From Syntrophales bacterium (GTDB lineage Bacteria > Desulfobacterota > Syntrophia > Syntrophales > PHBD01): 64,000 nucleotides of DNA. The position numbers and the translations under genes are program-made. The stretch lies in the NCBI GenBank assembly GCA_963668175.1, contig OY764159.1:3296001-3360000 (forward strand), written 5' to 3'. The notes under the pieces are model-generated. The model saw nothing but the letters and a program-made list of their open reading frames with translations, searched no databases and was not told the DNA's origin. The stretch's first letter is position 1; each line of letters opens with the position of its first letter. Below are positions 8,521-64,000 of this stretch, one piece after another.

Positions 8521-8619
8521 GGCGTTGCGGCGGGCGAAAAAATACGGCTGTTTTCCCTTGCCTTGTATGGTATAATATGGGCCTCTTCGGAACGATGAAA
8601 CCGTATATGAGACCCGGCC

Positions 8620-16111: not shown

Positions 16112-16406
16112 CTCTTTTCCGATTATTCTTAACCGTTGGTTCATGAGGCAAGAAACCCTCCTATTCCCGATATGCATCCGATACGCGGTGAATAACCGTT
16201 TATATAAAGCAGAAGTGTTACAGCCCCGTGATTGTTCGATGAAAGTTTTATGAAGAATGGCGCAAGCGGGAGACGTCTTCGTTTACCTGGACCATGCGCG
16301 GCATCATCGATCCAATTGCAGAGAATTTCACGAACTATTCATGATTCCGTCATCAACACGTCAAAATTCATCGCTATGATATCCAAAAATGAAAGGAGGC
16401 TGTACG

Positions 16407-16694
16407 ATGGATACGAAGCAAACAGGCATCAAGATGTTCGATCTCAACAGGAAGTTTTTCGACAACGCCTTCATGGCCGCAGGCAACATTCAAGACCAGT
16501 TCGAAAAGATGATGGTATCCTGCATGACCCTGTCGCCGTGGTTCCCCGAAGAGACCCGTACCTGGATCACGGAACGGTTCGACACCTGCAAAAACTGGCG
16601 CAATCAAGTCAAAGCCGCCGTAGACGGGCATTTCCAGAACATGAAAAACGATTTGTACGGCAGCGGCGGCGCCATTGCAGACACGGCCCGATGA
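16407..16694 (+). CDS. Small helical, phasin-like hypothetical protein
   Basis: AAAGGAGG before ATG 16407; FDNAF..QDQFEKM..PWFPEE pattern recalled from deltaproteobacterial phasin-like proteins. Confidence 0.55.
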   Translation: MDTKQTGIKMFDLNRKFFDNAFMAAGNIQDQFEKMMVSCMTLSPWFPEETRTWITERFDTCKNWRNQVKAAVDGHFQNMKNDLYGSGGAIADTAR

Positions 16695-35538: not shown

Positions 35539-36123
35539 CTATTCCGCCGTATTCGCGCGGAGGCGGTGGGCCCGGACCTTCTCCCTGTTGCCGCAGATGG
35601 ACATGGCGCACCACCGGCGGCGGTTGGCCGGAGAGTGATCGAGAAAGAGCATCCGGCAGCCGTCGTTCTCGCACATTTTCAGCCGCTCCCGCCCCGCTTC
35701 GCCTAAAACGGCGACAGCGTCGCGGGCAACTGCCGCCAGCATTGCCCTTGCCGGATCGGCGCTTTCCCACCGGACCTGGAAAGACGCGACGTCGAACTGC
35801 GGTACGGCGAGGCCGCATGCGGCGGCCGCGTTGATGCGGTCAATGTCGTCTTTGTCCGGCGATTTCTCCATTATAAAGGCGCGAAGGGTTCTGTAGATCG
35901 CTTCCCGCAGGAGTAGCGCTTCGTCGTGTTCCTGATGGGTCGTAATGACGGCCGGCATCCCGCAGCCGGCAAGCCGGAACCAGTCGTCAAGGGCTGAGGG
36001 CGTCGCAAGGAGATCCCGCGGTTTGGCGCCGCGATGGCGGACCGTCGCCACGAAATTGAGGGCCAGGCTGCCCGCATCGAATCGGAATCGGCTGTATTTA
36101 GGGTGGGGAGATTTAAACGCCAT
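35539..36123 (-). CDS. ABATE/CGNR zinc-finger protein
   Basis: LALNFVAT; CENDGC..FLD..RRWCAMSICGNR. Confidence 0.92.
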   Translation of the reverse strand: MAFKSPHPKYSRFRFDAGSLALNFVATVRHRGAKPRDLLATPSALDDWFRLAGCGMPAVITTHQEHDEALLLREAIYRTLRAFIMEKSPDKDDIDRINAAAACGLAVPQFDVASFQVRWESADPARAMLAAVARDAVAVLGEAGRERLKMCENDGCRMLFLDHSPANRRRWCAMSICGNREKVRAHRLRANTAE

Positions 36124-36131
36124 TGGAACGG

Positions 36132-36173
36132 CCCTTTGTAACCAGTTTATATGGTTACAAAGGGGTTTGTCAA
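36132..36173 (-). promoter_or_regulatory. 13-bp inverted repeat (operator) overlapping the CGNR gene promoter
   Basis: CCCTTTGTAACCA-N7-TGGTTACAAAGGG at 36132-36164; minus-strand TTGACA at 36173-36168. Confidence 0.7.
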
Positions 36174-36195
36174 GGATAATCTTTTCAGGATTCCC

Positions 36196-36792
36196 TCATT
36201 TCAGCAGGCGCCTCATGGCATAGTTGTAAGACGCGATCTGCCAGGCCATCAGGATCAGGATGATCGAAGAGCTGGATATGGGAAGCCCCTTGTAGTTGAA
36301 GATATACTGCCTGGCTCCGGTATCCGGCCGCTCCGCCGTGCCGTTTTTGAGAACATCAAACCCCACGCCCAGCGTGACCATCCCGGTTTTGCCCGCAACG
36401 GCCTTCTCCGGCGGCAGGCGGTAAACGGAAACCTGGATGCTGTTCAGGCAAAAGAGGAGCACAAGAAGCGCCAGCGTCGTGAGCAAGGTCGCCCGGGCCG
36501 CCTTTCCGGTCAGGTGGGCTTCCCTCTCGTCCCGTTCCCGGATCACGGTGATTTTCGCTATGACCTGCTCCCGGAACGGCCCGGAAGCGAGCAGTCTGAC
36601 GCTCAGATAAACGGCAAGCGCGAGCCATAACGCCACGGCGAACCCGAAGAAACCGCTGCTTAAGAACCCGGCATGCGGAACATCGCGGTCCACGGCGCCC
36701 GCGGCATAGAAATTGGCATAAACAGCCAGGACAACAAAAACAGGTAAGCCGTATAAGAACACCTTCAGCAAGATAGAATCGAACTTCTTCAT
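36196..36792 (-). CDS. Membrane protein with DERE motif (DUF2178-like)
   Basis: Four hydrophobic segments; RERDERE..GKA; overlaps the XRE gene by 4 nt. Confidence 0.65.
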   Translation of the reverse strand: MKKFDSILLKVFLYGLPVFVVLAVYANFYAAGAVDRDVPHAGFLSSGFFGFAVALWLALAVYLSVRLLASGPFREQVIAKITVIRERDEREAHLTGKAARATLLTTLALLVLLFCLNSIQVSVYRLPPEKAVAGKTGMVTLGVGFDVLKNGTAERPDTGARQYIFNYKGLPISSSSIILILMAWQIASYNYAMRRLLK

Positions 36793-37019
36793 GGCCTCTC
36801 CTCCTCGATGGAAAAAATCGTCTGGATGTCCCTCCCGAAATACCGTGCGATGCGGAAAGCCAGCTCCAAAGAGGGGTTGTAGCCGCCCCCCTCGATGGCT
36901 ACGATCGTGGCCCTGGTCACACCCACCTCTTTCGCCAACTGCTCCTGGGTTAACCGCCTCTCCGCCCGCAGGACATGAAGGCGGTTGACGATTTTAAGCT
37001 GGGGCACGGTTTTCGGCAT
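36789..37019 (-). CDS. XRE-family HTH regulator
   Basis: NRLHVLR..LTQEQLA..GVTRATIVAIE.GYNPSLELAF. Confidence 0.9.
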   Translation of the reverse strand: MPKTVPQLKIVNRLHVLRAERRLTQEQLAKEVGVTRATIVAIEGGGYNPSLELAFRIARYFGRDIQTIFSIEEERP

Positions 37020-37050
37020 GGTTCACATCCTCAATTCAATGGATGGCGGT

Positions 37051-37080
37051 CTTGTATAGTATATTTTACTATATGTCAAG
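37051..37080 (-). promoter_or_regulatory. Palindromic operator upstream of the XRE gene
   Basis: TATAGTA-N5-TACTATA (37055-37073) next to minus-strand TTGACA (37079-37074). Confidence 0.6.
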
Positions 37081-37294
37081 TTTATTTTTCATTGCAGCCG
37101 ATGCTCGTGAATAAGAAAAAGCCCCTCCTGAGAATTATTCCTTTATAATTCAGATGGTTCGTTTCAATAAGTGTATCGATCTCCTCGATTCCTCCGGCAT
37201 TCTCCGTTCGGTGATCGCAACGCGCCGTTACAAAAATGAAAATAGTCCTTGACAATTTGAACACCAAACGCTATTGACTACTCAGGTAGACACT

Positions 37295-38104
37295 ATGCGA
37301 ACCGTTATCGCCAGACTGACAGAAATCGGTTTTTCCGAATACGAGGCCAAGGCCTACGTGTCGCTGCTAAGCCGACAGCCGGCCACGGCTTATGAGATCG
37401 CCAAGGCGTCGGGCGTGCCGACGTCCAAGGTCTACGAGGTCCTCGGCAAGCTTATCGACAAGGGAACCGTCACCATCATCGACGAAGGCAGGACCAGGCG
37501 TTACGTCCCCCTGGAGCCGGGCGAGTTCCTCGAAAGGCACCGGAGTGCGACGGAGGCCCTTGTCGCGTCGCTGAAAACCGATCTTTCGTCGTTGAGCGGC
37601 GGAGAGGACGTCTCCTACATATGGAATATCACCGAGTACGACTACCTGCTCGACAAAGGTCGCCGCATGATCAAGAGTGCCGCCGTGACGCTGATGGCCT
37701 CCCTGTGGCGCGAAGAGTTCGCCGCCTGGGAAGACGATCTCCTTGAGGCCGAAAGGCGCGGCGTCAAGGTGGCGGTCGTTCACTTCGGCGAATCGGCCGC
37801 GGCTTCCCTTTCTCACATCTACCCGCACCCCATCGAAGACACGATCTACGAAGAAAAGGGGGGACGGGGCGTGGTCCTGATCGCCGACGATACGGAGGCC
37901 CTCAACGGCACTGTACTTTCCGGAGCCCTGGTCGAAGGTGCATGGAGCACCAATCGGGGCTTCGTAACCCTGGCCGAAGACTATGTTAAGCACGACATCT
38001 ACATTATGAAAATCGTCCGGCGTTTCGACCGGATGCTGACCGAAAGGTTCGGGGCCGGTTATGCGATGCTGCGCGATGTTTTTACAGACGAGGAAAAATC
38101 ATGA
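37295..38104 (+). CDS. TrmB family transcriptional regulator
   Basis: GFSEYEAKAYVSL, EIAKASGVPTSKVYEVL. Confidence 0.88.
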   Translation: MRTVIARLTEIGFSEYEAKAYVSLLSRQPATAYEIAKASGVPTSKVYEVLGKLIDKGTVTIIDEGRTRRYVPLEPGEFLERHRSATEALVASLKTDLSSLSGGEDVSYIWNITEYDYLLDKGRRMIKSAAVTLMASLWREEFAAWEDDLLEAERRGVKVAVVHFGESAAASLSHIYPHPIEDTIYEEKGGRGVVLIADDTEALNGTVLSGALVEGAWSTNRGFVTLAEDYVKHDIYIMKIVRRFDRMLTERFGAGYAMLRDVFTDEEKS

Positions 38105-38997
38105 AAATATATATTGACGGCAAATACTATGGGAAGGAAGAGGCGACCGTCTCGGTTTTCGACCACGGCCTCCTTTACGGCGACGGCGTTTTCGAAGGGA
38201 TCAGGGTCTACGGCGGTAAGGTTTTTAAACTATCCGAGCACGTTGCCCGGCTTTACCGGAGCGCTCAGGCGCTGTTCCTCCAGATACCCATCAACCGGGA
38301 ACAGATGGCCCGTGCCATCGTCGACACAGTCGAGATCAACAAGAAGAGAGACGGCTACATCCGCGTGGTCGTGACACGGGGCGACGGCGCGCTCGGCATC
38401 GACCCGACGTCATGCCCTCGGGCGAAGGTGATCGTCATCGTCGGCGACATCCAACTCTACCCGCCGGCCTACTACGGGGACGGCATCGCCGTCATCACGG
38501 CGGCCTCGCGCCGCATGCCGTCGGACTGCCTCGACCCCCGGGTGAAATCGCTCAATTACCTGAACAACATCATGGCCAAGATGGAGGCGCGCCAGGCGGG
38601 GTGCCTTGAGGCCGTCATGCTGAACAAAGAGGGGTTCGTCGCGGAATGCACGGGCGACAACATCTTTATCGCCAACAGAGGGGAACTCCTCACGCCTGCA
38701 CCCTACCACGGGGCGCTGGACGGCATCACGATGGCAACGGTCCTTGAACTCGCCGCCGAACTCGATGTTCCGTGCCGGCAGACATCGCTTACACGCTACG
38801 ACCTCTATACGGCCGACGAATGCTTTCTCACGGGTTCCGGCGCGGAGATCATACCGGTGACGAGGATCGACGGCAGGATAATCGGCGACGGCAAACCCGG
38901 AACGACGACGAGGAAACTCATCAACGCCTTCCGGGACCTGATCGAAGGCAGGATCACGAGCACTGAAAACCGGCAAAAAGCCGTTTCCGCCGCCTAA
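38101..38997 (+). CDS. ilvE: Branched-chain amino acid aminotransferase (class IV)
   Basis: DHGLLYGDGVFEG, YIR, KSLNY, ECTGDNIF, LDGIT, ADECFLTG. Confidence 0.88.
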   Translation: MKIYIDGKYYGKEEATVSVFDHGLLYGDGVFEGIRVYGGKVFKLSEHVARLYRSAQALFLQIPINREQMARAIVDTVEINKKRDGYIRVVVTRGDGALGIDPTSCPRAKVIVIVGDIQLYPPAYYGDGIAVITAASRRMPSDCLDPRVKSLNYLNNIMAKMEARQAGCLEAVMLNKEGFVAECTGDNIFIANRGELLTPAPYHGALDGITMATVLELAAELDVPCRQTSLTRYDLYTADECFLTGSGAEIIPVTRIDGRIIGDGKPGTTTRKLINAFRDLIEGRITSTENRQKAVSAA

Positions 38998-39001
38998 ACA
39001 A

Positions 39002-39042
39002 TACGGCGGGAAGGAGTGGCAACCACACTCTTTCCCGCCGTA
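39002..39042 (+). terminator. Long hairpin directly after ilvE
   Basis: TACGGCGGGAA / TTCCCGCCGTA plus inner GAGTG/CACTC; the T tract is displaced downstream. Confidence 0.55.
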
Positions 39043-39353
39043 AACGATTCTATTTTTTCATGCTTGCCCTTAATATAAGCTCTCCGCCTCCCCGGCAACA
39101 TCCGCCCTCCCCTCCCTTTGTGCACCACGTAAGTCGGTCATAAAAGAATGGCGATGCAATATACTGCTATTTTGAAAAATTTCGTCTGGATTACAGACCC
39201 TATACTTCTCCATGTAATCGCCTGTATCTCTTTGTTTCATTTGGATTTAATATGGATGTACCAGAGGTACAGGAAGCGACAGCGCTCCATGCCGATCATT
39301 TAACGACACCAACATTATATTAGTATCATATTGAAATATATTAAAAAAACATC

Positions 39354-39381
39354 TTGACAATCTTGTGCATGCTGTTATGAT
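39354..39381 (+). promoter_or_regulatory. Strong sigma70 promoter
   Basis: TTGACA-N16-TATGAT, extended -10 TG, AT-rich upstream element. Confidence 0.7.
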
Positions 39382-39387
39382 TTACTC

Positions 39388-39550
39388 GAGTAAGGCGGTC
39401 TCCGCAGCCTGAACCAACGCCTAGTAACAGCATCGGGCACGCAGACCGATGCCTGCAGCAGTCCGCCAGTCCTGTTCAGCGGGACGTCCTCCGTTTCATG
39501 CGCGTTTTCCTCGGTCAGGCGTTCCTTTCCGGCAGACAGCCGCCTTGATC
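39388..39550 (+). ncRNA. Candidate structured RNA or leader, class unknown
   Basis: Starts at the predicted TSS; AAGGCGG/CCGCCTT closing stem, GCCTGA/TCAGGC, hairpins GCATCGG/CCGATGC and GTCCTGT/GCGGGAC; folded by eye only. Confidence 0.35.
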
Positions 39551-39673
39551 TTCATCGCCGTCAACATCGTCTACGGGGATATGGTCTAACGCACGGAAAA
39601 GCCCCGCCAGTCGCCGATAACCGGCTGTCTTCAGCCGCGTCGCCAAGGGGCAACGACAGACACAGGCTTCAAC

Positions 39674-40573
39674 ATGCTGAGAATCTATCATATAAGCGAT
39701 CTTCACTTCAGCAAGAAAGAGAGCGACAATGACGGCGCCAGAATTCTGCTGCACAGGATCGCCCGGGTGTTCAATGCCCAATCCGGCTGCGGCGATTACC
39801 TTCTTGTCACCGGCGACATCACGGACACGGGCTCCCGGGTGGAATACTTCCTGGCCCTCGAGGCCCTCATGCCTTTCCGCGGCCGGATATTCGTCGTTCC
39901 CGGCGATCACGATTACGGCGGGCTTCTGGGCTCGAACTTCGACGAAATCAAAGCGAAACGTTTCGATACGCCTTTTGCCGAAGCTCTCGGCGTGGACCAC
40001 GCCTTCTTCGACAAATTCAACGTGATCGAAAACGGCTATGCGCCGTATACACGGGAACTGGATGACGGCAGCGGCACGAAAGTCCTGCTCATCGGCCTCA
40101 ACTCGTGCAGAAACGAGGGCATCCTTGATTTTGCCCAGGGAGGGATAGGCCGGCAGCAGCTTTTCAACCTGGACCGCATCCTTAGCGACCATACGCTGCG
40201 AGACGTACCGAAAATTCTTTTTCTCCATCACATTCCCATCAAGCACGCACGATTTCCCAATGTCATGACGCTGACGGACTGGGAGGCATTGATGCGCACG
40301 ATCGACGACCGCGTCGAAGTGATCGCCTTCGGCCATCAGGGCTACGAAGAAGACAACGGCGCATGGCTGAAGGCAAGCCGCAATATGTATGCTGCGGAAA
40401 GGGCGTCAGCCAAAGGAAAGCGTTTCCTGCTCGATGCCAACAGTTCGGTCTACGAACAATCCTGCTATCTTGTCACCTTCGATCGCGATACTGTAAGCGC
40501 TGAAATCATGGTCATGGGACCGCCCCTGGCAGAAAGCGATGAGCCTTTATTCGTGAGGGAGAGTGCCTTCTAG
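39674..40573 (+). CDS. Calcineurin-like metallophosphoesterase, copy 1
   Basis: SDLH, TGDI, PGDHD, LHH, FGHQG. Confidence 0.85.
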   Translation: MLRIYHISDLHFSKKESDNDGARILLHRIARVFNAQSGCGDYLLVTGDITDTGSRVEYFLALEALMPFRGRIFVVPGDHDYGGLLGSNFDEIKAKRFDTPFAEALGVDHAFFDKFNVIENGYAPYTRELDDGSGTKVLLIGLNSCRNEGILDFAQGGIGRQQLFNLDRILSDHTLRDVPKILFLHHIPIKHARFPNVMTLTDWEALMRTIDDRVEVIAFGHQGYEEDNGAWLKASRNMYAAERASAKGKRFLLDANSSVYEQSCYLVTFDRDTVSAEIMVMGPPLAESDEPLFVRESAF

Positions 40574-40821
40574 GATGACCGCTTCATGGCATGCGATGCA
40601 AACGGGAATATTCTATGCCGGAAAGGATGTGATAAACTGTAGCCAAAGGATTGTCTGACTTTGATAGCGGTGAGAAAAGTGCCGTTGTCTGCAGTTGAGT
40701 AGAGATTTCCTCTTTCGTCATCCTGAATGCCTCCATTAGCCTCTGTGTGTCCGTAAACGGCATGAACAGTCCAACAGTGAATCGTTGTTAACGCATTGAC
40801 TCTATCATTGGGGAGGCGACT

Positions 40822-41706
40822 ATGCTTACGATATACCATGTTAGCGATCTTCACTACGGCACAAAAAGTCCGCACAATAACAAGGCGGATTACTTGTTGA
40901 CGCAGCTTAAAGCTGATTGGGATAAGAATACGGCAGCGAATAAATATCTTCTCGTGACAGGCGACATCGTCGATGACGGCACAGAAATCAACTACGCTAC
41001 GGCAATGGACGCCTTGCTACCTTTTAAAGACAAGATCATCGTGATACCCGGAAATCACGATTACGGCTATATAGAAAGCGTCATTTATTCCGCTCGCGCC
41101 GCCCGCTATTTCGATCATCCCTTTTCGACGAACCTCGGAATGCTTAATCCATCTGCAAATTTCTTCGGCAAAATACCTTATCAGGTCACGTTGGACGATC
41201 ATAATGGAAATAAGATGAAGCTTATCGGACTCAACTCCTGCAAACAGACATCCGCCTGGAATGATTTCGCCCGGGGCGAAATAGGAACGGCGCAATTGGG
41301 ACGACTGAAAGAGATACTGGACAGCGATAATACAACGCCTAAACTCATCGCATTGCATCATATCCCCAATAAGGAAGCCGTTCCGGAGATGGTCATGACG
41401 CTGGAGGATCGTGAACAGTTAATAGATGCCGTCGGAAAACGTAGCTATGCGTTTGCCTTCGGTCATCAAGGTTGGTTCGAAGCAGACAATAAGCTGCAAA
41501 GATGCACACAAGCGAGAAAGATGTCGATCAATGCCTTCGCCGAACGCAAAGACGGCCCTTTCTTTCTTGATGCGAACAATTCGGTCGACGAATCGGCTTG
41601 TTATAAGATAACGGTGCTCGGCGGCACACCAAACACAGAGTTAATCAGGTTCGCCCCGCAACCGTCAGATGAGGGACAGCATGGCGATCCGGTTGAACAA
41701 CCCTGA
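40822..41706 (+). CDS. Calcineurin-like metallophosphoesterase, copy 2
   Basis: SDLH, TGDI, PGNHD, LHH, FGHQG; GGGAGG RBS. Confidence 0.87.
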   Translation: MLTIYHVSDLHYGTKSPHNNKADYLLTQLKADWDKNTAANKYLLVTGDIVDDGTEINYATAMDALLPFKDKIIVIPGNHDYGYIESVIYSARAARYFDHPFSTNLGMLNPSANFFGKIPYQVTLDDHNGNKMKLIGLNSCKQTSAWNDFARGEIGTAQLGRLKEILDSDNTTPKLIALHHIPNKEAVPEMVMTLEDREQLIDAVGKRSYAFAFGHQGWFEADNKLQRCTQARKMSINAFAERKDGPFFLDANNSVDESACYKITVLGGTPNTELIRFAPQPSDEGQHGDPVEQP

Positions 41707-41917
41707 TCGTATCCATGTGGTGGGAATGCCGGGATCGGATTCCGTACAATTAACGACATACGGGGATTGTAGACTTTCGCACCCTGCAGACACAAGCATA
41801 CCGTCGATCTTGACAGGAACTGTTCGAGAGGCCGTTTTTTGGTTCACAACGTGAAAGGAGGTGACCGACAAGATATTAGAACGAAATAACCTCATAATAG
41901 GATTAGGAGGTGTTCTG

Positions 41918-42781
41918 ATGGCTTTCACAGACAATTGTGATATTTTTGCATCTTTCCATGAAGACGGCTTTAACCGGATTATCAGGCATGTGCAAAGTCA
42001 AAGGCCGTCATTGTTTAATTACGCAACTGCATATATTGCAGCCAATCCGGAGCTTTTATGCGAAGCGGTTCCATCTCATCCCATCATCTTGGCTCGCAAT
42101 AATCCGCTTGTAACCATTGTTGATCCTCTGCCTGTCCCTGGAACCAATTACGCTGTCAATTTCGCAATACAACTGACCGGGTTGTGTATCGACTTTCACC
42201 CGGCCGATACGTTCAGTCTGCCGCCGGAATTGAGTCCGCCGCTTCAAGAACAGCGATGGGCGATCAAGTTGGATATTTGCGGCGGCTTTGGCTGTCCACC
42301 CAAGGAAATCGTGGATCATCTCATCCCTAAACCGAAAGAAACTCCGCAATCGACGGAATCCAAGAAGGGTGATTCCGGTCGGTCGCAAGATAAGGAACCC
42401 CTTGTTCCCATACAAATCCGCAAATTGATATGTTTCTCTCTGGAAGCCTATGCCACGGGCGGCATACGTGTCGCCACATACGACGGCAAACCGTATCTCG
42501 AAACTTATCTGGAGGGCTTCGAGATTGTGGACATCAAACCCGAAGGGCTCGAAAACAGCCTGGAGTGCTACATCGATCTGTTGCTGAAGCTTGTCGTTTT
42601 ACCCGGTTTAAGGATTCTGCTCTCTTACGCACCGCTCAATCTTACACAAGGGGCAACGGATCTTTTCCCTAAGCCTACCAATGTCGTCCTTGGCCCGATG
42701 CCTGTCTCGGCAGCACTGCCGAATAATCCGGCCATTGAAAGAGACCAGCTTAAAGTCTTCATCAAGGCGGAGGTGATCTGA
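41918..42781 (+). CDS. Hypothetical protein (island ORF A)
   Basis: AGGAGG before ATG 41918; 287 aa; no signal peptide. Confidence 0.75.
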   Translation: MAFTDNCDIFASFHEDGFNRIIRHVQSQRPSLFNYATAYIAANPELLCEAVPSHPIILARNNPLVTIVDPLPVPGTNYAVNFAIQLTGLCIDFHPADTFSLPPELSPPLQEQRWAIKLDICGGFGCPPKEIVDHLIPKPKETPQSTESKKGDSGRSQDKEPLVPIQIRKLICFSLEAYATGGIRVATYDGKPYLETYLEGFEIVDIKPEGLENSLECYIDLLLKLVVLPGLRILLSYAPLNLTQGATDLFPKPTNVVLGPMPVSAALPNNPAIERDQLKVFIKAEVI

Positions 42782-42782
42782 T

Positions 42783-43727
42783 ATGGCACATATAACCATT
42801 GCAGCATCCGAAAAAACCTTCAAAGCGCTTTTTGAAGGTATCCGCAACAATTTCAAATTCATAAAATCCGACAGCAAGGATTTTGGCCCTTTTACAGCTG
42901 CATACGCCCTGGAGGCACACTTGGAAGGTGGAACGATTGACCTTCGAGCCGACAACACCATCCGGATCAAGGAACTCGACATCAAATGGGACAAAGTCGA
43001 TCTGTGCATCGGCATCGACATCCCGGAAGTCAGTGTCGGAGGTTTTTGCATCATCCCCAGTCCGTTCGGAGGTTGTTGGGTACGCGCACCCAAAATCAGC
43101 GTATTCAGCGCTGACCCCGACATCACCGTCACACTGCCGCTCGGGGGACTCATCACGACAGAATTATCGGTTATAGGCTCGTTGCTGATCAAATATGCAT
43201 CGAATCCGAACCGTCCCATCGGCATGAACGAATGGGATGCGCAGGATGCAAGTCCTTCCCTTGCCAACCATTGGCAAGTATTTCTTGACCCGCAGACGGT
43301 GGATGTCGATTTGTTCGACATAGCCGACATGGCAGGCGATCTCCTGGAGAACGCCCTAAATACGGCGATCGACCGTTTGCTCGGCTTTCTCCCTGGTTGG
43401 GCAAAAGATCTGATCAAGGCCATCCTCGGTCCGATCATCGACGTGGTTAGGGCCATCCTGGATCTCCCGGACGATATTCAGGAGTGGATTAGCGATCTTC
43501 TGAATGTAAGTTTCGGTATGCTTGATATCGTTCTGCAGCTTGTAGCCGACTACTTCGCCAACCAATACCCTCTCCACCAAATCGAAGATCCGTATCCCAT
43601 GCTCAAAGCAACAGCCAATCCTAACCCGGGTTTTCCGTCATCCATCATACCGGTAAAGATCCCGATTCGCGATTTAAGAGTATTCAACAATGATCGGGAA
43701 ATGATCCTGGAAGGAAATGTGGGGTAA
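42783..43727 (+). CDS. Hypothetical protein (island ORF B)
   Basis: GGAGG RBS; starts 1 nt after ORF A; 314 aa. Confidence 0.75.
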   Translation: MAHITIAASEKTFKALFEGIRNNFKFIKSDSKDFGPFTAAYALEAHLEGGTIDLRADNTIRIKELDIKWDKVDLCIGIDIPEVSVGGFCIIPSPFGGCWVRAPKISVFSADPDITVTLPLGGLITTELSVIGSLLIKYASNPNRPIGMNEWDAQDASPSLANHWQVFLDPQTVDVDLFDIADMAGDLLENALNTAIDRLLGFLPGWAKDLIKAILGPIIDVVRAILDLPDDIQEWISDLLNVSFGMLDIVLQLVADYFANQYPLHQIEDPYPMLKATANPNPGFPSSIIPVKIPIRDLRVFNNDREMILEGNVG

Positions 43728-43731
43728 TAAT

Positions 43732-44433
43732 ATGAAAGCTAAATTGAACATACCATTATTCGAGACGATGACATTTGACAGCGGTTCCCTGGGAGTTCTG
43801 GCCATGGTGCTCCACCAGTTCAGTTCGCCGGGATATTATCGGACATCCATTATGAAACAGGACTGTACAGTGGGAGAGGTTGATTTTGAGGTCAATGAAA
43901 AGTCGGAAGTTATGCAACTGGATATCGATCTGGCACAGGTCAACTGGAAGACGAAGTTGAAATCGGCAGGCTTGGGCTTTAAAAGCGGAATACAGAATGC
44001 GGGTATCGTCTCTCCCAAAGGTTATGTATTGTTCCACGTGTCCTCGGGAAGCGGATACTCGGCCATGACATCGGAAAGGGAAGGCCGTGCGGCTTTTAAC
44101 AGCGCCACCCTCCAGGACGGCGATTTGTTTGCCGTTTCCCTCCTTGAACCGGCAGGTTATACGATGAAAAATGTTCTTGGATCGGCAACGGGAGGGATCG
44201 TAGTAACCCTGACATCCAAGGCGGCGAAATCCATCAAGACTCTTGAAACATGTCATATCGATGTGAACCAAAAGAAATTCAATCCGGAACGCGTTGAATT
44301 GACGGCTTCCCAAGGTCTCGTTTTCCACGTCAAGGACAGCGCAAGGATATTGATCGAGATGAAACGTGCAAAAGTACAGAAACATGCAAAACCGGCAATC
44401 CGGTGGCAGAAATTAAAGACGGCCAAGAGGTAG
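43732..44433 (+). CDS. Hypothetical protein with internal repeat (island ORF C)
   Basis: ATG 4 nt after the ORF B stop; internal repeats FDSGSL/FNSATL and LFHV/VFHV. Confidence 0.7.
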   Translation: MKAKLNIPLFETMTFDSGSLGVLAMVLHQFSSPGYYRTSIMKQDCTVGEVDFEVNEKSEVMQLDIDLAQVNWKTKLKSAGLGFKSGIQNAGIVSPKGYVLFHVSSGSGYSAMTSEREGRAAFNSATLQDGDLFAVSLLEPAGYTMKNVLGSATGGIVVTLTSKAAKSIKTLETCHIDVNQKKFNPERVELTASQGLVFHVKDSARILIEMKRAKVQKHAKPAIRWQKLKTAKR

Positions 44434-44892
44434 GAAAAGCAGGCGGTATCCAAGAGTTGTGTGATTTTCAGTCCTTTATGACAAGCGATTCGGGAAAGAC
44501 TGGCGGAGCGCTCTCAACCATACTACGACATTTTCAAGTTCAGGGATTTACCATTTTCCCACACTCAATCACCTTGTCTGCATGGGACAGGTATCAGAAA
44601 ACAGTTCGACTGATATCTGTCCCTTCCATTCTTTATTAAACAACACATAATGTTACTTATTATTTTCTGCTCTAATGAAGGACTCACGATGCCAGCCAAA
44701 TATATCGGTATCGACGGCAGGATTGAATATATTTCTTGCATGCCTTGAAGAAAGGTATCATATTCTTAACGAATTCCGGAATTGTAGGGACTGAAGCGTT
44801 GCAAAGACGCCGCCGGGCCGACATCCCTTGTCCTCGAATAATATGATACGCACAGATACTTATTCTTAATGCATCTGCACAGGAGATTCAGG

Positions 44893-45276
44893 TTGCCTTT
44901 TTCAACGACGTCCACACCTGACCGGATCGACGAAATTGCTCCGGACGGCGCTGAAATACGCCTTTTGTCCCGGATGGAAGGCGGCGGAGTATGTCATTGT
45001 TCCCTCGCTGCCGGTCTCACTTCCCGGGCCGTCCGGCACAAAACCGTCGAAGAAATATGGTACTTCCTGACCGGGGAGGGGGAAGTCTGGCGGAAGTCGG
45101 ACGCGCAGGAGTCGGTCGTCGCCGTGAAACCGGGCCTCTGTCTGACCATACCGCCGGGAACCCATTTCCAGTTCCGCAATACCGGTCAAGTTCCCCTGAC
45201 CTTCCTGTGCGTCACTATGCCTCCCTGGCCCGGCGACGAGGAAGCGGATCGGGTGGATGACTATTGGACCTTGTGA
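44893..45276 (+). CDS. Cupin domain protein
   Basis: APDGAEIRLL, HKTVEEIWYFLTGEGEVWR, IPPGTHFQFRN, MPPWPG; AGGAG then TTG 44893 (alternative ATG 44869). Confidence 0.85.
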   Translation: MPFSTTSTPDRIDEIAPDGAEIRLLSRMEGGGVCHCSLAAGLTSRAVRHKTVEEIWYFLTGEGEVWRKSDAQESVVAVKPGLCLTIPPGTHFQFRNTGQVPLTFLCVTMPPWPGDEEADRVDDYWTL

Positions 45277-45687
45277 AATCATCGATCCGCCGTCTTCACG
45301 TTGCCGCCGGAAAGACCTCACGGTCCGCCGGATATAACCGATAGTTCGGCATCCCCGTCTCGCCGGGGCCGGGGGCCGAAGCGATCCAGTCTTTTATGCC
45401 ATGTTCCAAACCGCCTACCGGCATATCGCGGTCCCCGATAAGCCGACACTCCCGAACCGCTTACGGTTAGTTGCCATTGACACGGCGAAAGAGACCGTTT
45501 AAAATGACACACAGTGAGGTTCCCTATCCGGGACCTTTGACTCAAAACCTATCCCGTGGAGGAGATCGGAAGCCCTGCCCCGGCGATGACATCCCTCCTT
45601 TTTTTGTTGAGGCTTCCATCGTAACGCCTTGGTTGCCGGAATACGCACCTCTTCCGGACAGGTCCAACCACGATAACGAGGTATCCC

Positions 45688-48009
45688 ATGAGCCAGGATC
45701 AATACCCGTATTTTTCCCCCGATCAGATTGTTCCCGAGACACCCGGCCCCGGCGCCGCACCGAAACCGTGGGGCAAAACCAGCATGGTGGGAAGCCGCCG
45801 GCCCCGCGTGGAAGGCTATGAACTGGTCAGCGGCAGGGCGGTTTATCCCTCCGATATGTCGCTGCCGGGGATGCTCACGGCCGCCGTGCTCCGCTCCCCC
45901 CATCCCAACGCCGTCGTCAAGAGCATCGACACGCGTGCAGCCGAAGGCATGCCCGGCGTCCGGGCGGTGCTGACGGGCAAAAGCCCCGAAGCGAACATCG
46001 TCTGGACGTGGTCCGACGACATCAAGACCAGGCTCTTCGACGACCGGTGCCGCTTCGAGGGGGAGGCCGTCGCCGCCGTTGCCGCCGAGAACGCCTACCA
46101 GGCGGGCGACGCCCTCGCCGCCATCAAGGTCGAATACGAGGTCCTGCCGCCCCTGGTGGACGAACATAAGGCCCTGGAGACCGGCGCGCCCCGCATCCAC
46201 GACAAGGGGAACCGCGTCAAGCCTGTGGAAATATACAAGCGGGGGGATGTGGCGAAAGGCTTTGCCGAGGCGGATGTCGTCCTGGAAGAGACCTACCGGA
46301 CGGAATGCGAGATACACACGCCCCTGGAACGGCACGGCTGCGTCGCCAAATGGGACCGCGACCGGTTGACCGTCTGGCCGTCCACGCAGGGCGTCTTCCG
46401 CATCCAGGCCCAGCTGGCCGCCATCCTGTCCATTCCCCTCTCCAAGGTGCGCGTCTCCGGAAGATACATGGGCGGGGGATTCGGCAGCAAACTGACCATG
46501 GACAAGGAAAACGTCATTGCCGCGCTCCTGGCGAAGAAGACGGGCCGGCCGGTGAAGCTCTTCATGAGCCGGGAGGAAACCTTCATCGCGGCGGGAAGCC
46601 GCCCGGCGGCGAACATGCGCCTGAAAGCGGGCGTCAGGAAGGACGGCACCCTGACGGCGCTCGATTTCACCTGCACGGCCACCTGCGGGGCTTACCCCGC
46701 CCAGGCCACGGGCGGCGTCGACTGGCAGATCAAGGACCTCTATCTCTGCCCCAACGTCCGGACCGAACTTACCGACATCTATACGAACGCCTGTCCGTCC
46801 CGTCCGTTCCGCGCTCCCGGTCATCCGCAGGGTGCATGGGCGCTGGAACAGATGCTCGACGCCCTGGCCGCCGCCGTCGGCATGGACCCGGTGGCCCTCC
46901 GCCTGAAGAATATCGCCGCGGTCAGCCAGGCGAGGCCGGGCAATCCCCCTTATACCTCGACGGGATTCAGGCAGTGCCTCACCGAAGGCGCCAGGGCCTT
47001 CGGCTGGGAGAAGGCAGCGGGCGCCGCCGGTAAACACGGAAACTGGCGGAAAGGCGTCGGCATGGCCGGGGGCATGTGGGTGGTCGGGGGCGGCGGACCG
47101 CCGTCGACGATCATTCTCAAACTGTTCGCCGACGGAAGCGTCAACCTGAACATGGGGGCAAGCGACATCGGCACGGGAACGCGGACGGTCATGTCCCTCG
47201 TCGTTGCCGAAGAGCTGGGCGTGAGACCCGAGGTCATCGACATCGAACATGCCGACACGGCCACCACGCAATTCGCCACCCCGAGCGGCGGGAGCAAGAC
47301 GGTCCCCACCGAATCGCCCGCCGTGCGCGCCGCCGCCATCAACGTCAAACAGCAGCTTCTGGCCATGGCCGCCGAGGACATGAAGGAAGCCGCCTCCGAT
47401 CTGGACATCAAAGGGGGCCGGATCGTATCGCGCCGCGACCCGGCGAAGAAAATCAAGCTCACGGACGTTACGGGGCTGAAACGGCAGGGGGTCGTCGTCG
47501 GCATCGGCTATCGCGGCCCGAACCCCGCCGATCGCGCGGTCAATCCCTTCTCCGCCCAGTTCTGTGAGGTCGAGGCGAACATCAGGACCGGCGAGGTCCG
47601 GGTCCTCCGTTTCCTCAGCGCCCACGACAGCGGCCGGATCATGAGCAGCCTCACCTTCGACAGCCAGGTAATCGGCGGTATCACCATGGGCATCGGGCTC
47701 GCCATGACGGAATCCCGCATCCTCGACCGCCGCCAGACGGGCAAGATCGTCTCGGGCAATTGGCACGACTACAAGATTCCGACGGCCATGGACGTCCCGG
47801 CGGACATCGCCGTCGTCCCGGTCGATCTCCCGGACAACGAGGCCAACATTGCCGGCGCCAAGGGCGTCGGGGAGCCTGCGACCATTCCCACGGCGGCCGC
47901 CGTGGCCAATGCCGTATACAACGCCACCGGGATAAGGCTCACCTCGACGCCGATCAGTCCGGCTTTGCTGCGTCAGGCGCTGGCAGCGGGCAAGAAGGAA
48001 CAGAAATAA
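45688..48009 (+). CDS. Xanthine dehydrogenase family Mo-binding subunit (PaoC-like)
   Basis: LRSPHP, STQG, GGGFGSK, FRAPGHPQG, DIGTG, SGGS, KGVGEP catalytic Glu. Confidence 0.92.
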   Translation: MSQDQYPYFSPDQIVPETPGPGAAPKPWGKTSMVGSRRPRVEGYELVSGRAVYPSDMSLPGMLTAAVLRSPHPNAVVKSIDTRAAEGMPGVRAVLTGKSPEANIVWTWSDDIKTRLFDDRCRFEGEAVAAVAAENAYQAGDALAAIKVEYEVLPPLVDEHKALETGAPRIHDKGNRVKPVEIYKRGDVAKGFAEADVVLEETYRTECEIHTPLERHGCVAKWDRDRLTVWPSTQGVFRIQAQLAAILSIPLSKVRVSGRYMGGGFGSKLTMDKENVIAALLAKKTGRPVKLFMSREETFIAAGSRPAANMRLKAGVRKDGTLTALDFTCTATCGAYPAQATGGVDWQIKDLYLCPNVRTELTDIYTNACPSRPFRAPGHPQGAWALEQMLDALAAAVGMDPVALRLKNIAAVSQARPGNPPYTSTGFRQCLTEGARAFGWEKAAGAAGKHGNWRKGVGMAGGMWVVGGGGPPSTIILKLFADGSVNLNMGASDIGTGTRTVMSLVVAEELGVRPEVIDIEHADTATTQFATPSGGSKTVPTESPAVRAAAINVKQQLLAMAAEDMKEAASDLDIKGGRIVSRRDPAKKIKLTDVTGLKRQGVVVGIGYRGPNPADRAVNPFSAQFCEVEANIRTGEVRVLRFLSAHDSGRIMSSLTFDSQVIGGITMGIGLAMTESRILDRRQTGKIVSGNWHDYKIPTAMDVPADIAVVPVDLPDNEANIAGAKGVGEPATIPTAAAVANAVYNATGIRLTSTPISPALLRQALAAGKKEQK

Positions 48010-60741: not shown

Positions 60742-62193
60742 CTATCTCTTTTCGCCGTCGCTGCCGGCAGTCCATCCCCCGCCCAGCGCCTTGTACAGGC
60801 GGACGAGGTTGGCCGTTATGGTCCCATCGCTTTGGGTCAGCTGATCCTGAAACGACAGTACCGACCGCTCCGCCTCCAGAACATTGCTGAAATCCGCCAG
60901 GCCCGCCTCGTACTTCTGCCGGGCAAAGGTCGACGCTTCGCGGGCGGCCAGCGTGGCGGCGGCAAGCGCCTTCCGCCGCTTCTGTTCTTCGGCCAAGGCC
61001 GTAAGCGCATTTTCGGCCTCTTCCAGGGCGCCGAGCACAGCGGACTGCCAGGCCAGAAAGTATTGTTCCTGCAGGGCCGTCTGGATGTCGATGTTACGGC
61101 GGACGGCGCCGGCATCGAAGATACGCCAGGATACGCTGGGGCCGAAACTGTACCAGCCGCTGCCGGCAGTAAAGAAGTCGCCGGCATTCGTCGATTGCAG
61201 GCCGATGGAGCCGCTCAACTTGAATTTGGGATAGAGGTCCGCGGCCGCCACGCCTATTTTGGCCGTCTGTGCGGCAAGATTGCGCTCCGCCTTACGGATA
61301 TCCGGACGGCGCCGGACACAATCGGCGGGAACGCCGGCCGCCACTTTCTCAGGAATGACCGGAACGGGTGTGGCCTTGGCCAGTTCGTTCTGTATCCTCC
61401 CCGGCTGCTCGCCCAGAAGCACCGCGAGCCGGTTAAAAGACGACTCCAAAGAAGAGCGTAACGCCGGGATTTGGGCGCGTGTATTTTCCATGTTATAGCG
61501 GGCCTGCTGAACCGCCAAGTCGTCGCTCAGGCCCGCTTCGTTGCGCCAGACCGTCAGCTGCCAGGTTTCCTGCTGCGACACCAGGTTGGCCTCGGCTACG
61601 GCTATCCGGGCCTGGTACGTGCGGACGTCGATATAGTTCAGCGCCGTTTCGGCAAGGAGGGAAACCAGCACGTCGCGCCAGTCCTCGCGGCTGTAATCGA
61701 GGGCGGCATCCGCCGCCTCCACGGATCGGCGCACGCCGCCGAAGATATCCAGCTCCCAGGCCGCATCGAATCCGGCGGCAAACAGCGTATCGTTGCTGCG
61801 CGCCCCCGCTGTTTCGGTACTCCGGCTGCGGGTGATGCCGCCTGTCGCGTCAAGCGTCGGAAAGGCATCGGTCTGGGCCAGGCCCCGTCTTGCGCGCGCC
61901 TCGCGGATTCTCGCCCGGGCCTTCTTCAGATCGAGATTGCCCTCCGCCGCCCTCTTCATCAATCCCGAAAGCACGGGATCGTTCAGCGAGGCCCACCAGG
62001 ACGCAAGCTCCTGCTGGTCCGCCGCCCCCATGACCAGGCCGTTCCCGGCGGAAGCATGCCAGGCCGGGGCCACGGACGCGTCGGGTCTGACGTAATCCGG
62101 TCCTGCTTTGAAACAGGCGGAGACGCAAATCGCCGCGAGGAGCACGATCAGACATCTTCTCATGGCGGCTGGAATGGATAATGGATGCTTCAT
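60742..62193 (-). CDS. Outer-membrane efflux lipoprotein (NodT/OprM type)
   Basis: Lipobox VSAC, GPDY, WELDIFG, RRPDI, LYKALGGGW. Confidence 0.92.
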   Translation of the reverse strand: MKHPLSIPAAMRRCLIVLLAAICVSACFKAGPDYVRPDASVAPAWHASAGNGLVMGAADQQELASWWASLNDPVLSGLMKRAAEGNLDLKKARARIREARARRGLAQTDAFPTLDATGGITRSRSTETAGARSNDTLFAAGFDAAWELDIFGGVRRSVEAADAALDYSREDWRDVLVSLLAETALNYIDVRTYQARIAVAEANLVSQQETWQLTVWRNEAGLSDDLAVQQARYNMENTRAQIPALRSSLESSFNRLAVLLGEQPGRIQNELAKATPVPVIPEKVAAGVPADCVRRRPDIRKAERNLAAQTAKIGVAAADLYPKFKLSGSIGLQSTNAGDFFTAGSGWYSFGPSVSWRIFDAGAVRRNIDIQTALQEQYFLAWQSAVLGALEEAENALTALAEEQKRRKALAAATLAAREASTFARQKYEAGLADFSNVLEAERSVLSFQDQLTQSDGTITANLVRLYKALGGGWTAGSDGEKR

Positions 62194-62599
62194 TTATCTT
62201 CTCAAGGGCCGATCCGGCCCGGGAACGCTCCCGAACGTAATATGAGGCATATATATGCAAGCCCGGAGACGAAATCACGTTATGAATTGTAAAGAAAGAA
62301 TATCGTTCGCAATTACAATTAATTACATTATTTATAGGGGTTGTCGGCAAAATAGGGCGCTTTCCCGCGTATCAAACCGAAATATTCATGTATTGCCGGA
62401 TAAAGCGATTCACATCATCCTATGTTCAGTTGTTCATCCATCGACAGTGAAAACTGGACATAGAAGTCATCATCGTATATATGCGAATATAAAACGAATA
62501 GGTTGAATAAATCATTGTTCCGCAATGACTGAAGCGCAAAGCATGATCTCTCATCGGGAACCGGACGCCATATGGTCAATTCGCGAGTCAGTCCGGCTG

Positions 62600-63688
62600 A
62601 TGCCTAGACTGGCCTGGCTGGACAATGCGAAGGCCCTGGGAATCATCCTGGTATTTTAAGGACATATTGCCGAGCAGGTCTTCTCGATCACCCAGACTCA
62701 GGCCGCCTACATCCAATATAAGCTGATCTATTCCTTCCACATGCCGCTCTTTTTTGTGTTGTCCGGCTATCTCGCTTCCCGGAGAAATCGGGAAGATATT
62801 CCCTCTTTTTTTAAAAAGCTCATGATTTCCCGCATCGTTCCTTTTCTATTCTTTAATCTGCTGATCCTGCCGTTTTACTTCATCGATGCGGCGTTCACGA
62901 ACAGTCATGCCGATGTTCCGCAACTTTTGTCGAGATCTTTGTATTTGCTCGCCGGCAGGCCGGCCTTCAACTTCATCACCTGGTTTTTGATCTGTCTGGC
63001 ATCGGTAGAAGTCATCCACTATCTCGTATTTCCGCTTGTCCGTAACGATAAGCGGAAAATGATACTGGCGATCATCTTGTGTTATTTGGCTGGGTGGTAT
63101 GCCGCGAGCCCGGGCAATATCCTTAACACATTGCTGTTCAAGGACTACTGGTACGTCCGCGAAGCCGTGCTGGCTTGCAGCTTCTATCTCTTCGGAAGTA
63201 TGCTGCCCGCAATGCCTATGCTCCGGGATACCCTACCGGCAAAATCGGCATTTCCAATGGGAATTCTTTCCACCGGATTGCTCGTCGTCGCTTTCAATCT
63301 CAATGAAGGCCCCTTCCGGATCTGCCCGGTTGTCGCTGTGGCGTTTGCGGGCTACGGGAATATTCTCCTGTTTCCATTGACGGCCATAGCCGGAACCGTG
63401 AGCATCGCGATCGTTTCACGATGGCTGGGAACGATAGGTATTTTTCAGTATCTGGGGCGGAATACCCTCGTCCTGATGGGATTGAACGGCATCTTGGCCC
63501 AATTTCCTAATGTCGTGTTCTTAACCAGATTTCAGGGTTTCCTTTCCGGTTCGCCGTTGACGACGGTCTTTTTGTGCTTTGTCTTAACGGTTTTATCCAT
63601 CATACTCTGCATCCCGTGCGTTTACCTGCTTAATAGATACCTGCCGCGAGCGGTCGGTTCCCCCCGGCCACGGCCTCGCACGTTTTAG
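62600..63688 (+). pseudogene. Acyltransferase-3 family gene with in-frame TAA at 62657-62659
   Basis: MPRLAWLDNAKALGIILVF*GH...IYSFHMPLFF is in frame with ORF 62741-63688; in-frame ATGs also at 62525 and 62543. Confidence 0.75.
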
Positions 63689-63824
63689 ACGGTCGGAGTT
63701 TCGTCATTTCATCTTCAAATCATAACAGAAACGGAAAGCGCACTGACGGAAATTAACTCGATCGCATCTTTACTTATTATCGCATCAACTTTATGATGTG
63801 AGCTGATCTGATGAGGAAAACCGT

Positions 63825-64000
63825 ATGAACATGGAATTTTTGGCCGGGGCGGTTGCCGTCGTCGCGGCGGTTCTCACGATCGTCGCATGGCGGTCCAAAG
63901 GGCGTTACGGAAAGCTAAGGCCAAGCAAAGACGCCGCGGCGGCCTACGAATCCTTCTCTGTCGATCCCGGCAGGCATTATTATATCAGCGGCTCCGACGT
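63825..64000 (+). CDS. Hypothetical membrane-anchored protein, truncated by the window end
   Basis: GAGG then ATG 63825; MNMEFLAGAVAVVAAVLTIVAWRSKGRYGKL... is open to the edge. Confidence 0.55.
   Translation, partial: MNMEFLAGAVAVVAAVLTIVAWRSKGRYGKLRPSKDAAAAYESFSVDPGRHYYISGSD

Follow-up and report, generated by a model that had tools for sequence, protein, structure and literature searches.

An autonomous three-gene cassette with putative TULIP-like proteins beside two metallophosphoesterase genes in a Syntrophales genome

The window analysed here is a whole stretch of 64,000 nt from a Syntrophales bacterium (assembly GCA_963668175.1, contig OY764159.1, positions 3,296,001 to 3,360,000). Position 1 is its first letter, and all coordinates below refer to it unless another locus is named by an L number. 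Five open reading frames (ORFs) lie on its plus strand, downstream of an ilvE-like gene and ahead of a cupin gene. The first two encode the metallophosphoesterases MPP1 and MPP2, and the following three encode proteins that we call A, B and C (Table 1). The original prediction had described this region as one candidate system, in which a near-consensus promoter and a structured RNA precede twin metallophosphoesterases and three coupled genes, and in which an A/B/C complex would work with the phosphoesterases as its effectors. Several elements of this description stand. All five ORFs are co-oriented, the promoter carries a TG ahead of its -10 element, the two phosphoesterases are paralogs and both score above the Pfam Metallophos cut-off of 21.5 bits, and A, B and C belong together. 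The proposed link between the phosphoesterases and A-B-C does not stand.

Table 1. Features of the region between the ilvE-like gene and the end of the low-GC islet, with guanine-plus-cytosine (GC) content and GC at third codon positions (GC3).
Feature	Position	Strand	GC	GC3	Description
Hairpin and T-run	39002..39060	+			Inverted repeat, 17-nt arms, 94% complementary
Predicted sigma-70-type promoter	39354..39381	+			TTGACA, 16 nt, TG-n-TATGAT; 11/12, extended -10
Putative 5' leader of MPP1	39388..39673	+	0.608		286 nt
MPP1	39674..40573	+	0.553	0.687	299-aa calcineurin-like metallophosphoesterase; Pfam PF00149, E 1.9e-14, 55 bits
MPP2	40822..41706	+	0.479		294-aa paralog of MPP1; Pfam PF00149, E 3.6e-14, 54.1 bits
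Gene A	41918..42781	+	0.495		287 aa; first gene of the cassette; predicted TULIP-like fold
Gene B	42783..43727	+	0.504		314 aa; most conserved cassette gene; predicted TULIP-like fold with acid-rich helical insert 181-261
Gene C	43732..44433	+	0.483		233 aa from ATG 43732, ORF opens at 43717; variable, probably beta-rich partner
AT-rich spacer	44434..44868	.	0.423		Right edge of low-GC islet

The three cassette genes nearly abut, as the original prediction had noted. The stop of A at 42781 is followed by the start of B at 42783, and the stop of B at 43727 by the ATG of C at 43732, which leaves gaps of 1 and 4 nt. The ribosome-binding site of B lies within the last codons of A. Gene A starts at ATG 41918 and not at GTG 41861: an AGGAGG is located 7 nt upstream of this ATG, as at other loci, and the database copy of the window's A is likewise 287 aa long. 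Homologs of A measure 273-312 aa and share the same initial Met. For C, the ATG at 43732 was chosen for its agreement with the family consensus.

This gene order is strictly conserved. We examined 86 other loci, comprising five from genomes, one viral locus and the best 80 of 98 metagenome hits, and B was present in all 86. Where 400 nt or more are available upstream (69 loci), A directly precedes B in 68; the one remaining locus, L086, is a 1.4-kb contig that contains part of B and no A upstream. C follows directly downstream in every locus with room for it (68/68). No recurrent fourth gene was found at these loci, and the largest shared flank family is confined to five loci of one lineage. 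Pfam assignments among the 136 flanking ORFs (24 + 112) are heterogeneous, ranging over RuvABC, KARI, TruD, AbiEii, eCIS_core, RTX, peptidases and LuxR/AraC regulators. A strong ribosome-binding site stands ahead of A in nearly all of 54 upstream regions and, when the last 45 nt of these regions were compared by eye, it was the only element they had in common. Because the gene order is strict, no flank family is shared by more than five loci, the flanks are heterogeneous and the unit has its own ribosome-binding site, A-B-C is an autonomous cassette.

Individual loci show surroundings of their own. In a Sphingomicrobium-labelled sequence (L003:2276-4552), a 758-aa ORF that matches nothing in Pfam stops 13 nt short of A; no other upstream gene was seen to adjoin the cassette so tightly. 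In one lineage (L013:3790-5110 and L017:2684-4004), a gene for a papain-family peptidase lies ahead of the cassette, and behind it come two DUF2589 genes, one unknown gene and a gene of the Amidase_2 family (peptidoglycan amidase).

The coupling is tightest between A and B. The B family comprises 297 representatives at 50% identity, and among the best 150 of these in the B-profile search, all 20 sequences of at least 500 aa match the A profile in their N-terminal part and the B profile in their C-terminal part. The two parts are joined by linkers of ~29-97 residues, mostly 32-41. We regard these proteins as genuine fusions, because read-through of a 1-nt junction would leave no such linker. 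At locus L051, which encodes an A-B fusion, C is still a separate gene downstream. Judged from the gene structure, A and B are functionally coupled, because they are 1 nt apart, because the ribosome-binding site of B lies inside A, and because A-then-B fusions occur naturally. Strict synteny and these fusions are what uphold the earlier view of A/B/C as a unit. The naturally split and fused forms also constitute a ready-made experiment on how the two parts pair.

The phosphoesterase genes are not a part of this unit. A phmmer search (E <= 1e-3) found an MPP homolog at none of the 86 other loci, 28 of which extend 2 kb or further upstream of A and 32 of which extend as far downstream of C. The only other genome of the window's phylum that carries the cassette (G107), in which A, B and C are separate genes, has no MPP within 8 kb of it. 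Moreover, none of the six other phylum genomes with an MPP2 relative carries B, and no MPP2 relative adjoins a homolog of A, B or C. There is no conserved link between the MPPs and A-B-C, and the proposal that the MPPs form part of an A-B-C system is wrong on all the evidence obtained.

MPP1 and MPP2 share 42-43% identity. The ATG of MPP2 is preceded by GGAGG, and its translation shows DxH, GDxxD and GNHD, whereas MPP1 has GDHD in place of GNHD; the last motif reads GHQG in both proteins instead of GHxH. DxH, GDxxD, GNHD and GHxH are the metal-binding motifs of calcineurin-like phosphoesterases, so that MPP2 agrees with the superfamily consensus at GNHD and MPP1 departs from it. Against the NCBIfam model of the anti-phage phosphoesterase DS9_1 the two proteins score 42.5 and 37.3 bits, with a cut-off of 420, and against that of the class III cAMP phosphodiesterase CpdA 25.8 and 30.4 bits, with a cut-off of 225. 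The PADLOC model PDC-S60 gives N-terminal partial matches (E 1.7e-8 to 3.5e-7). By these scores, the matches to anti-phage and cAMP-phosphodiesterase models are superfamily-level only. The family was found in one of 41 related genomes, the window's own, and in seven of 401 phylum genomes including the window's own. One of the six MPP2 relatives in the phylum neighbours TIR_2 and HerA genes, one neighbours GmrSD and Mrr genes, and one (L108) a gene for a giant DUF6519 protein; two have metabolic genes only as neighbours, and the neighbours of the last (L105) have no Pfam match. The GC content of MPP1 is much nearer to that of the host than the GC content of MPP2. Because of this difference (0.553 against 0.479) and the GDHD/GNHD difference, the two paralogs may have arrived at different times.

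DUF6519 is the only family seen near both A-B-C and MPP2 relatives. A giant DUF6519 protein adjoins A-B-C, together with an eCIS_core-domain protein, in one lineage (L014:748-5374), and another adjoins the MPP2 relative at L108:2152-6690. This shared occurrence may be a coincidence.

In the five-gene explanation, an A/B/C complex would sense or target, the twin MPPs would act as effectors, and all five genes would be expressed from the promoter at 39354. It can draw on the shared orientation of the genes behind a strong predicted promoter with no convincing plus-strand terminator between them, on a GC content of MPP2 as low as that of A-B-C, on the weak partial matches of the MPPs to DS9_1 and PDC-S60, and on the defence-type genes beside two of the six MPP2 relatives. 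Yet the DS9_1 scores amount to a tenth of the cut-off, spacers of 248 nt (MPP1-MPP2) and 211 nt (MPP2-A) surround MPP2 where A-B-C has 1 and 4 nt, and the cassette, which has its own ribosome-binding site, stands without an MPP neighbour at all 86 other loci and in the one other carrier of the phylum, just as B is missing from all six genomes with an MPP2 relative. We therefore consider this explanation very improbable. As a conserved system the five-gene model is close to refuted, and what remains of it is a local, lineage-specific co-option. The supposed system resolves into ordinary stand-alone phosphoesterases and an A-B-C cassette. In our explanation, the region would consist of two unrelated acquired items side by side, A-B-C (41918-44433) and MPP1/MPP2, the latter being stand-alone enzymes of a separate, sporadic family that lie upstream of the cassette in this genome only.

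The predicted promoter would serve MPP1 and may read through into the genes that follow. Matches to at least 11 of 12 positions occur twice with a 16-nt spacer and four times with a 17-nt spacer in the window, where 0.08 are expected for each. Because such matches lie far above chance, the organism evidently uses promoters of this type, and the site at 39354 is a good one. At the looser threshold of 9/12, matches are uninformative, because six were seen in the region and 7.0 are expected. A second 11/12 match on the plus strand (45477-45505; TTGACA, 17 nt, TAAAAT) lies ~180 nt upstream of the gene at 45688, a molybdopterin (xanthine-dehydrogenase-family) gene. A minus-strand match of the same quality (36146-36173; TTGACA, 16 nt, TATAAA) is found just upstream of a 194-aa ORF at 35539-36123 (-).

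Upstream of the promoter, the hairpin with its T-run is likely the terminator of the ilvE-like gene, judging from its sequence, and hence would mark the left edge of the unit. A terminator scan of the plus strand did not flag this hairpin and listed a single terminator-like site, within B. The claim of a structured RNA between promoter and MPP1 is not supported. The leader (39388-39680) has a minimum free energy of -93.6 kcal/mol, against -98.45 +/- 5.17 for shuffled sequences (z +0.94, n=200), and 165 of the 200 shuffles fold at least as well. An Rfam scan of 36000-47000 returned no match at E <= 1. The leader DNA is present in one of 41 genomes, the window's own, with no copy in the 40 related ones, and a 46-aa ORF inside the leader (39449-39589) received no further support.

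The composition of the region sets it apart from the rest of the window. The segment 40500-45000 has a GC content of 0.484, the lowest among 238 sliding 4.5-kb windows; those outside it average 0.594 (sd 0.023) and reach a minimum of 0.549. The dip spans MPP2 and A-B-C, with MPP1 merely intermediate, and the flanking genes have GC3 values of 0.68-0.84. Here the original prediction is confirmed: its hand counts of 26, 23 and 25 G or C per 60 nt were exact on recomputation, the dip holds in the sliding-window computation, and the spacers that it called AT-rich have GC contents of 0.405 (39050-39353) and, on the right, the value given in Table 1. Its inference of an acquired region is borne out as well. 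B was found in one of 41 relatives, the window's own genome, and in two of 401 genomes of the phylum, and MPP1 is equally restricted among the relatives. With proteins labelled Methylobacter, Anaerolineaceae, Hydrogenophaga and Methanothrix, the window's B shares 72-79% identity (533-583 bits), whereas the copy of G107, from its own phylum, scores 195.6 bits only. Because its GC content is low, B is rare in relatives and in the phylum, and B scores far higher against proteins labelled from other phyla and an archaeon than against the copy in its own phylum, we conclude that the A-B-C cassette was acquired horizontally.

No att-like direct repeats were found flanking the islet and no tRNA gene in the window; integrase ORFs were not searched for. 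An empty insertion site could not be defined by synteny, because the flanking TrmB-type gene occurs in none of five same-family genomes and the xanthine-dehydrogenase-type gene in one of the five, at 30% identity. The DNA of this stretch recurs in contigs of two runs (X5 and X1); a single contig of X1 spans it completely, is nearly identical and may be its source. Elsewhere in the window, the stretches 62001-64000, 1001-1500 and 16001-16500 are also low in GC (0.47-0.53 in 500-nt windows) and may be other acquired segments.

Homologs of the cassette proteins are numerous and widely spread. Clustering at 90% identity gives 727 clusters for B, 454 for A and 126 for C. Source labels include Methylobacter, Hydrogenophaga, Burkholderiaceae, Usitatibacteraceae, Phyllobacterium, Sphingomicrobium, Anaerolineaceae, Bryobacteraceae, Chlorobiales and Methanothrix, so that the labels of B homologs cover one archaeon as well as bacteria of several phyla; because many of the sources are metagenome bins, single labels may be in error. 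Among 50,697 phage and 72,556 plasmid records, a tblastn search with B found no match, and scans of IMG/VR yielded one contig only with the cassette (L007). By these searches, the cassette is not typical phage or plasmid cargo.

On this contig, the cassette (L007:2592-5099) lies on the opposite strand between terminase genes, namely those of the GpA ATPase and nuclease, and genes for head-tail joining and a lambda-type portal; the neighbouring phage genes occupy 48-2087 and 6612-8775. A 329-aa unknown ORF and an HTH_17/excisionase-like gene adjoin it. The arrangement looks like inserted cargo in the head-gene block of a prophage.

None of the three proteins matches a recognised family, as had been predicted. 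A, B and C have no family match in Pfam, NCBIfam, PADLOC or PHROGs, so that the PADLOC check suggested for a defence role returned nothing for any of them. Scans of single members against Pfam likewise matched no family for 36 A and 38 B sequences. The 40 C members scanned in the same way gave one exception, a sub-threshold hit to Cupredoxin_1 in four of them; the E-value for the window's C is 0.0034. Profile searches of the Protein Data Bank (PDB) with A, B and C reached a best E of 1.1. In the ESM Atlas, C and one C homolog matched unnamed clusters only, with a cupredoxin lead at 0.78. We considered a functional cupredoxin and judge it unlikely for C, because its C-terminal part has no conserved set of Cys, His or Met residues.

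The three proteins differ in how strongly they are conserved. Mean column identity is 76% in B (38 sequences), 56% in A and 41% in C. A specificity or adaptor role would fit C, whose sequence varies more than those of A and B. In B, the invariant residues include a series of acidic positions, D174, D176, D179, D182, D186, D227, D230, D231, E234 and D238, and its predicted helical insert of 80 residues, which is poorly modelled, contains many invariant Asp and Glu residues.

The statement that A, B and C have no signal peptide also stands, judged from N-terminal hydropathy. The best 10-residue hydropathy within residues 1-35 has a median of 0.51 for A and 0.80 for B. C has a stretch of 2.0 near its N-terminus, which does not resemble a signal sequence and includes invariant Asp and Ser residues. 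Cys residues tend to occur in pairs. Among 88 sequences, positions 84 and 106 of B both carry Cys in 55, neither does in 30 and a single one does in 3; for positions 89 and 98 the corresponding numbers are 61, 9 and 18, and for positions 121 and 174 of A they are 11, 6 and 1 among 18 sequences. These counts were made on 50%-identity representatives and are inflated by relatedness among the sequences. The window's own B is without the 84/106 pair.

The first indication of what A and B might be comes from their predicted structures. In the AlphaFold2 models (mean predicted local distance difference test score, pLDDT, of 79.9 for A), both proteins begin with a helix, continue with long antiparallel strands and a long helix near the C-terminus, and end with a few more strands. 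This order of elements fits the layout of tubular lipid-binding (TULIP) domains, in which a strongly curved antiparallel sheet encloses a long helix and, with a second long helix, makes up a tube; the superfamily includes BPI/LBP/CETP, SMP, JHBP/Takeout, YceB and P47/OrfX2. The terminal strands of the models would fit the extra interface strands that the accessible text of Levine 2019 describes for bacterial TULIPs (PMC6791001). Foldseek placed JHBP, BPI, SPLUNC1, YceB and LBP in the first rows for both models. We also compared the models with all representatives using a Foldseek-independent aligner (VIA-align). For B, this search returned CETP (Z 6.2), BPI (6.1), the E-Syt2 SMP domain (5.9), Der f 7 (5.9), the designed protein 9ded (5.7) and JHBP (5.7), and for A the first 12 rows were all TULIPs (Z 3.5-4.4). 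A second look with the same aligner paired B with the N-domain of BPI at Z 7.2 and a root-mean-square deviation of 4.9 over 152 aligned residues, followed by LBP (Z 6.7) and CETP (Z 6.3); the first 14 rows for B and the first 24 for A (Z 3.5-4.6) were TULIPs. A match of B to the gasdermin-like RCD-1 (Z 5.6 over 75 residues) was judged a generic sheet match. On these models, TULIP-like is the best-supported fold class for A and B, with weak scores.

Our explanation starts from this fold class. A and B would each be one TULIP domain and would contribute one lobe each to a tube like that of BPI, LBP and CETP, and this tube would hold a lipid or another hydrophobic molecule. The beta-rich C would dock on this A-B tube and control its opening or targeting. 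The cassette would thus be an autonomous, split double-TULIP binder of hydrophobic ligands with C as its adaptor subunit, an explanation to which we give about an even chance of being right; here the fold class, the way in which the lobes pair, what C does and the hydrophobic nature of the cargo are all inferred.

A number of observations weigh against this explanation. The mean pLDDT of the B model is 68.6, and its helical insert falls partly below 50. The Foldseek E-values for A and B are 2e-3 or worse, with low template-modelling (TM) scores, and all Z values remain below 8, a range that possibly reflects a mere common arrangement. None of 36 A members, 38 B members and 20 A-B fusions matches a TULIP Pfam family, and an hhalign comparison of A with B gave a probability of 1.9%, which is no detectable similarity. 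The bacterial TULIP families YceB, DUF4403, DUF2140 and DUF2993 have hydrophobic N-termini and TipA has a signal peptide; A and B show neither. The paired Cys residues look like the pattern expected of disulfides, which would be odd in proteins without an export signal, and we treat them as a lead only. As for C, its cupredoxin-like signal is sub-threshold.

A less likely alternative is that the TULIP likeness is a generic arrangement of helices and a curved sheet, and that A-B-C is a complex of undescribed fold and function. Such a complex might, for example, assemble itself for a structural or storage purpose, or it might use the invariant acidic cluster of B to bind a ligand other than a lipid. 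In the searches with B, the TULIPs lead NTF2-like and Aha1 folds and designed beta-sheet proteins by no more than 1 Z unit, and there is no profile-level link to any family. To our knowledge, invariant acidic residues like those of B are no feature of TULIPs, and the strong conservation of B from phylum to phylum would be in keeping with an assembly that is under constraint at many of its surfaces. However, two independent models and two aligners put TULIPs first, for A without interruption over 12 and 24 rows; the A-B fusions, with their two domains in tandem, are laid out like BPI-type proteins; and the order of the genes matches that of TipA and TipB.

A different function for the same proteins also deserves consideration. 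A-B-C may be a conflict module, either an anti-phage or abortive-infection module or an inter-microbial toxin, that attacks membranes: the TULIP-like lobes would bind bilayer lipid, and the amphipathic, acid-rich insert of B would enter or disrupt the membrane. BPI, the best structural match, is a membrane-active immune protein. The cassette is patchy and horizontally spread, one copy is cargo in a phage-like contig, and conflict-type neighbours occur in the form of AbiEii (L002), eCIS_core with DUF6519 (L014) and a KAP NTPase (L039). A and B each contain an internal 19-residue window with a Kyte-Doolittle mean of ~1.7-1.85, and the Cys-pair pattern would suggest an oxidising, extracellular site of action. 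Against this stand the lack of any PADLOC or PHROG match, the single IMG/VR contig with no match among the phage and plasmid records searched, and neighbourhoods that mostly consist of housekeeping genes. Moreover, B is too well conserved to look like a protein in an arms race, A-B-C lacks a secretion signal, and genes for secretion, immunity or regulation are not consistently linked to it. We regard the conflict module as improbable. Bolder, and more improbable still, is the idea of a leaderless, mobile 'split BPI', a lipid- or membrane-directed immunity or conflict module of bacteria and archaea in which C provides specificity and the insert of B the trigger. If true, the cassette would be a prokaryotic counterpart of BPI-type innate-immune proteins, and the insert would trigger lipid extraction or membrane damage.

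Whichever function applies, A, B and C represent three families without an entry in Pfam, NCBIfam, PADLOC or PHROGs, which comprise hundreds of clusters from genomes and metagenomes with labels of several bacterial phyla and an archaeon, and which form a tight unit throughout. If the double-TULIP explanation is correct and the A-B tube has no export signal, the cassette would define a cytoplasmic or unconventionally released branch of TULIPs with a built-in adaptor. In the full-text literature, supplements of the cited papers excluded, we found no description of a split or leaderless TULIP cassette.

Among proteins of known structure, the B model comes closest to BPI, LBP and CETP (PDB 1BP1, 4M4D and 2OBD), with 152-170 residues aligned, and the three are among the best structural rows for A too. 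Their two-lobe architecture resembles the A-B fusions. They differ from A and B in being secreted eukaryotic single chains, and B is set apart from them by its 80-residue acid-rich helical insert, by an identity of 8-10% in the structural alignments and by the lack of a profile match.

Bacterial TULIP families are a second point of reference. The accessible text of Levine 2019 (PMC6791001) lists YceB/DUF1439, DUF4403, DUF2140, DUF2993 and P47/OrfX2, and bases the predicted locations of YceB, DUF4403, DUF2140 and DUF2993 on their hydrophobic N-termini. The orfX-p47 clusters are toxin gene clusters with multi-gene TULIP sets, according to the accessible text of PMC7020563. The structural searches with A and B returned YceB, OrfX1-OrfX3, OrfX2 and P47 at Z 3.4-5.6. 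In contrast to these families, as far as they are described there, A-C have no Pfam match to any of them, and the cassette shares neither their hydrophobic N-termini nor a toxin-cluster setting; its spread, which includes archaeal-labelled genomes, is a further difference.

The closest parallel, compared by layout and fold class, is TipA/TipB of Bdellovibrio bacteriovorus (bd2538/bd2539), which shows how recently bacterial double-TULIP proteins have been characterised. In the accessible text of the preprint (bioRxiv 10.1101/2025.09.09.675085), TipA has two TULIP domains, and its gene overlaps by 4 nt with the downstream gene of TipB, a beta-sandwich protein that clamps TipA and opens its lumen. 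DUF2785, given there as the annotation of TipA, has no match among 36 A and 38 B members, and no solved TipA chain was among the rows of our fold searches. Going by that text, TipA is one chain of ~570 aa that carries a signal peptide and forms homodimers, whereas A and B are encoded by two genes in most members and have no export signal; TipB is a small C2-like sandwich, whereas C has 233 aa and a putative beta-rich fold. Nevertheless, both systems consist of two (in A and B, predicted) TULIP lobes followed by a nearly abutting partner gene, with an overlap of 4 nt between tipA and tipB and a gap of 4 nt between B and C, and C would act on the A-B tube as TipB does on TipA. The likeness is greatest in the fused sub-family (L051), where one double-lobe protein with C encoded downstream reproduces the TipA/TipB layout as described.

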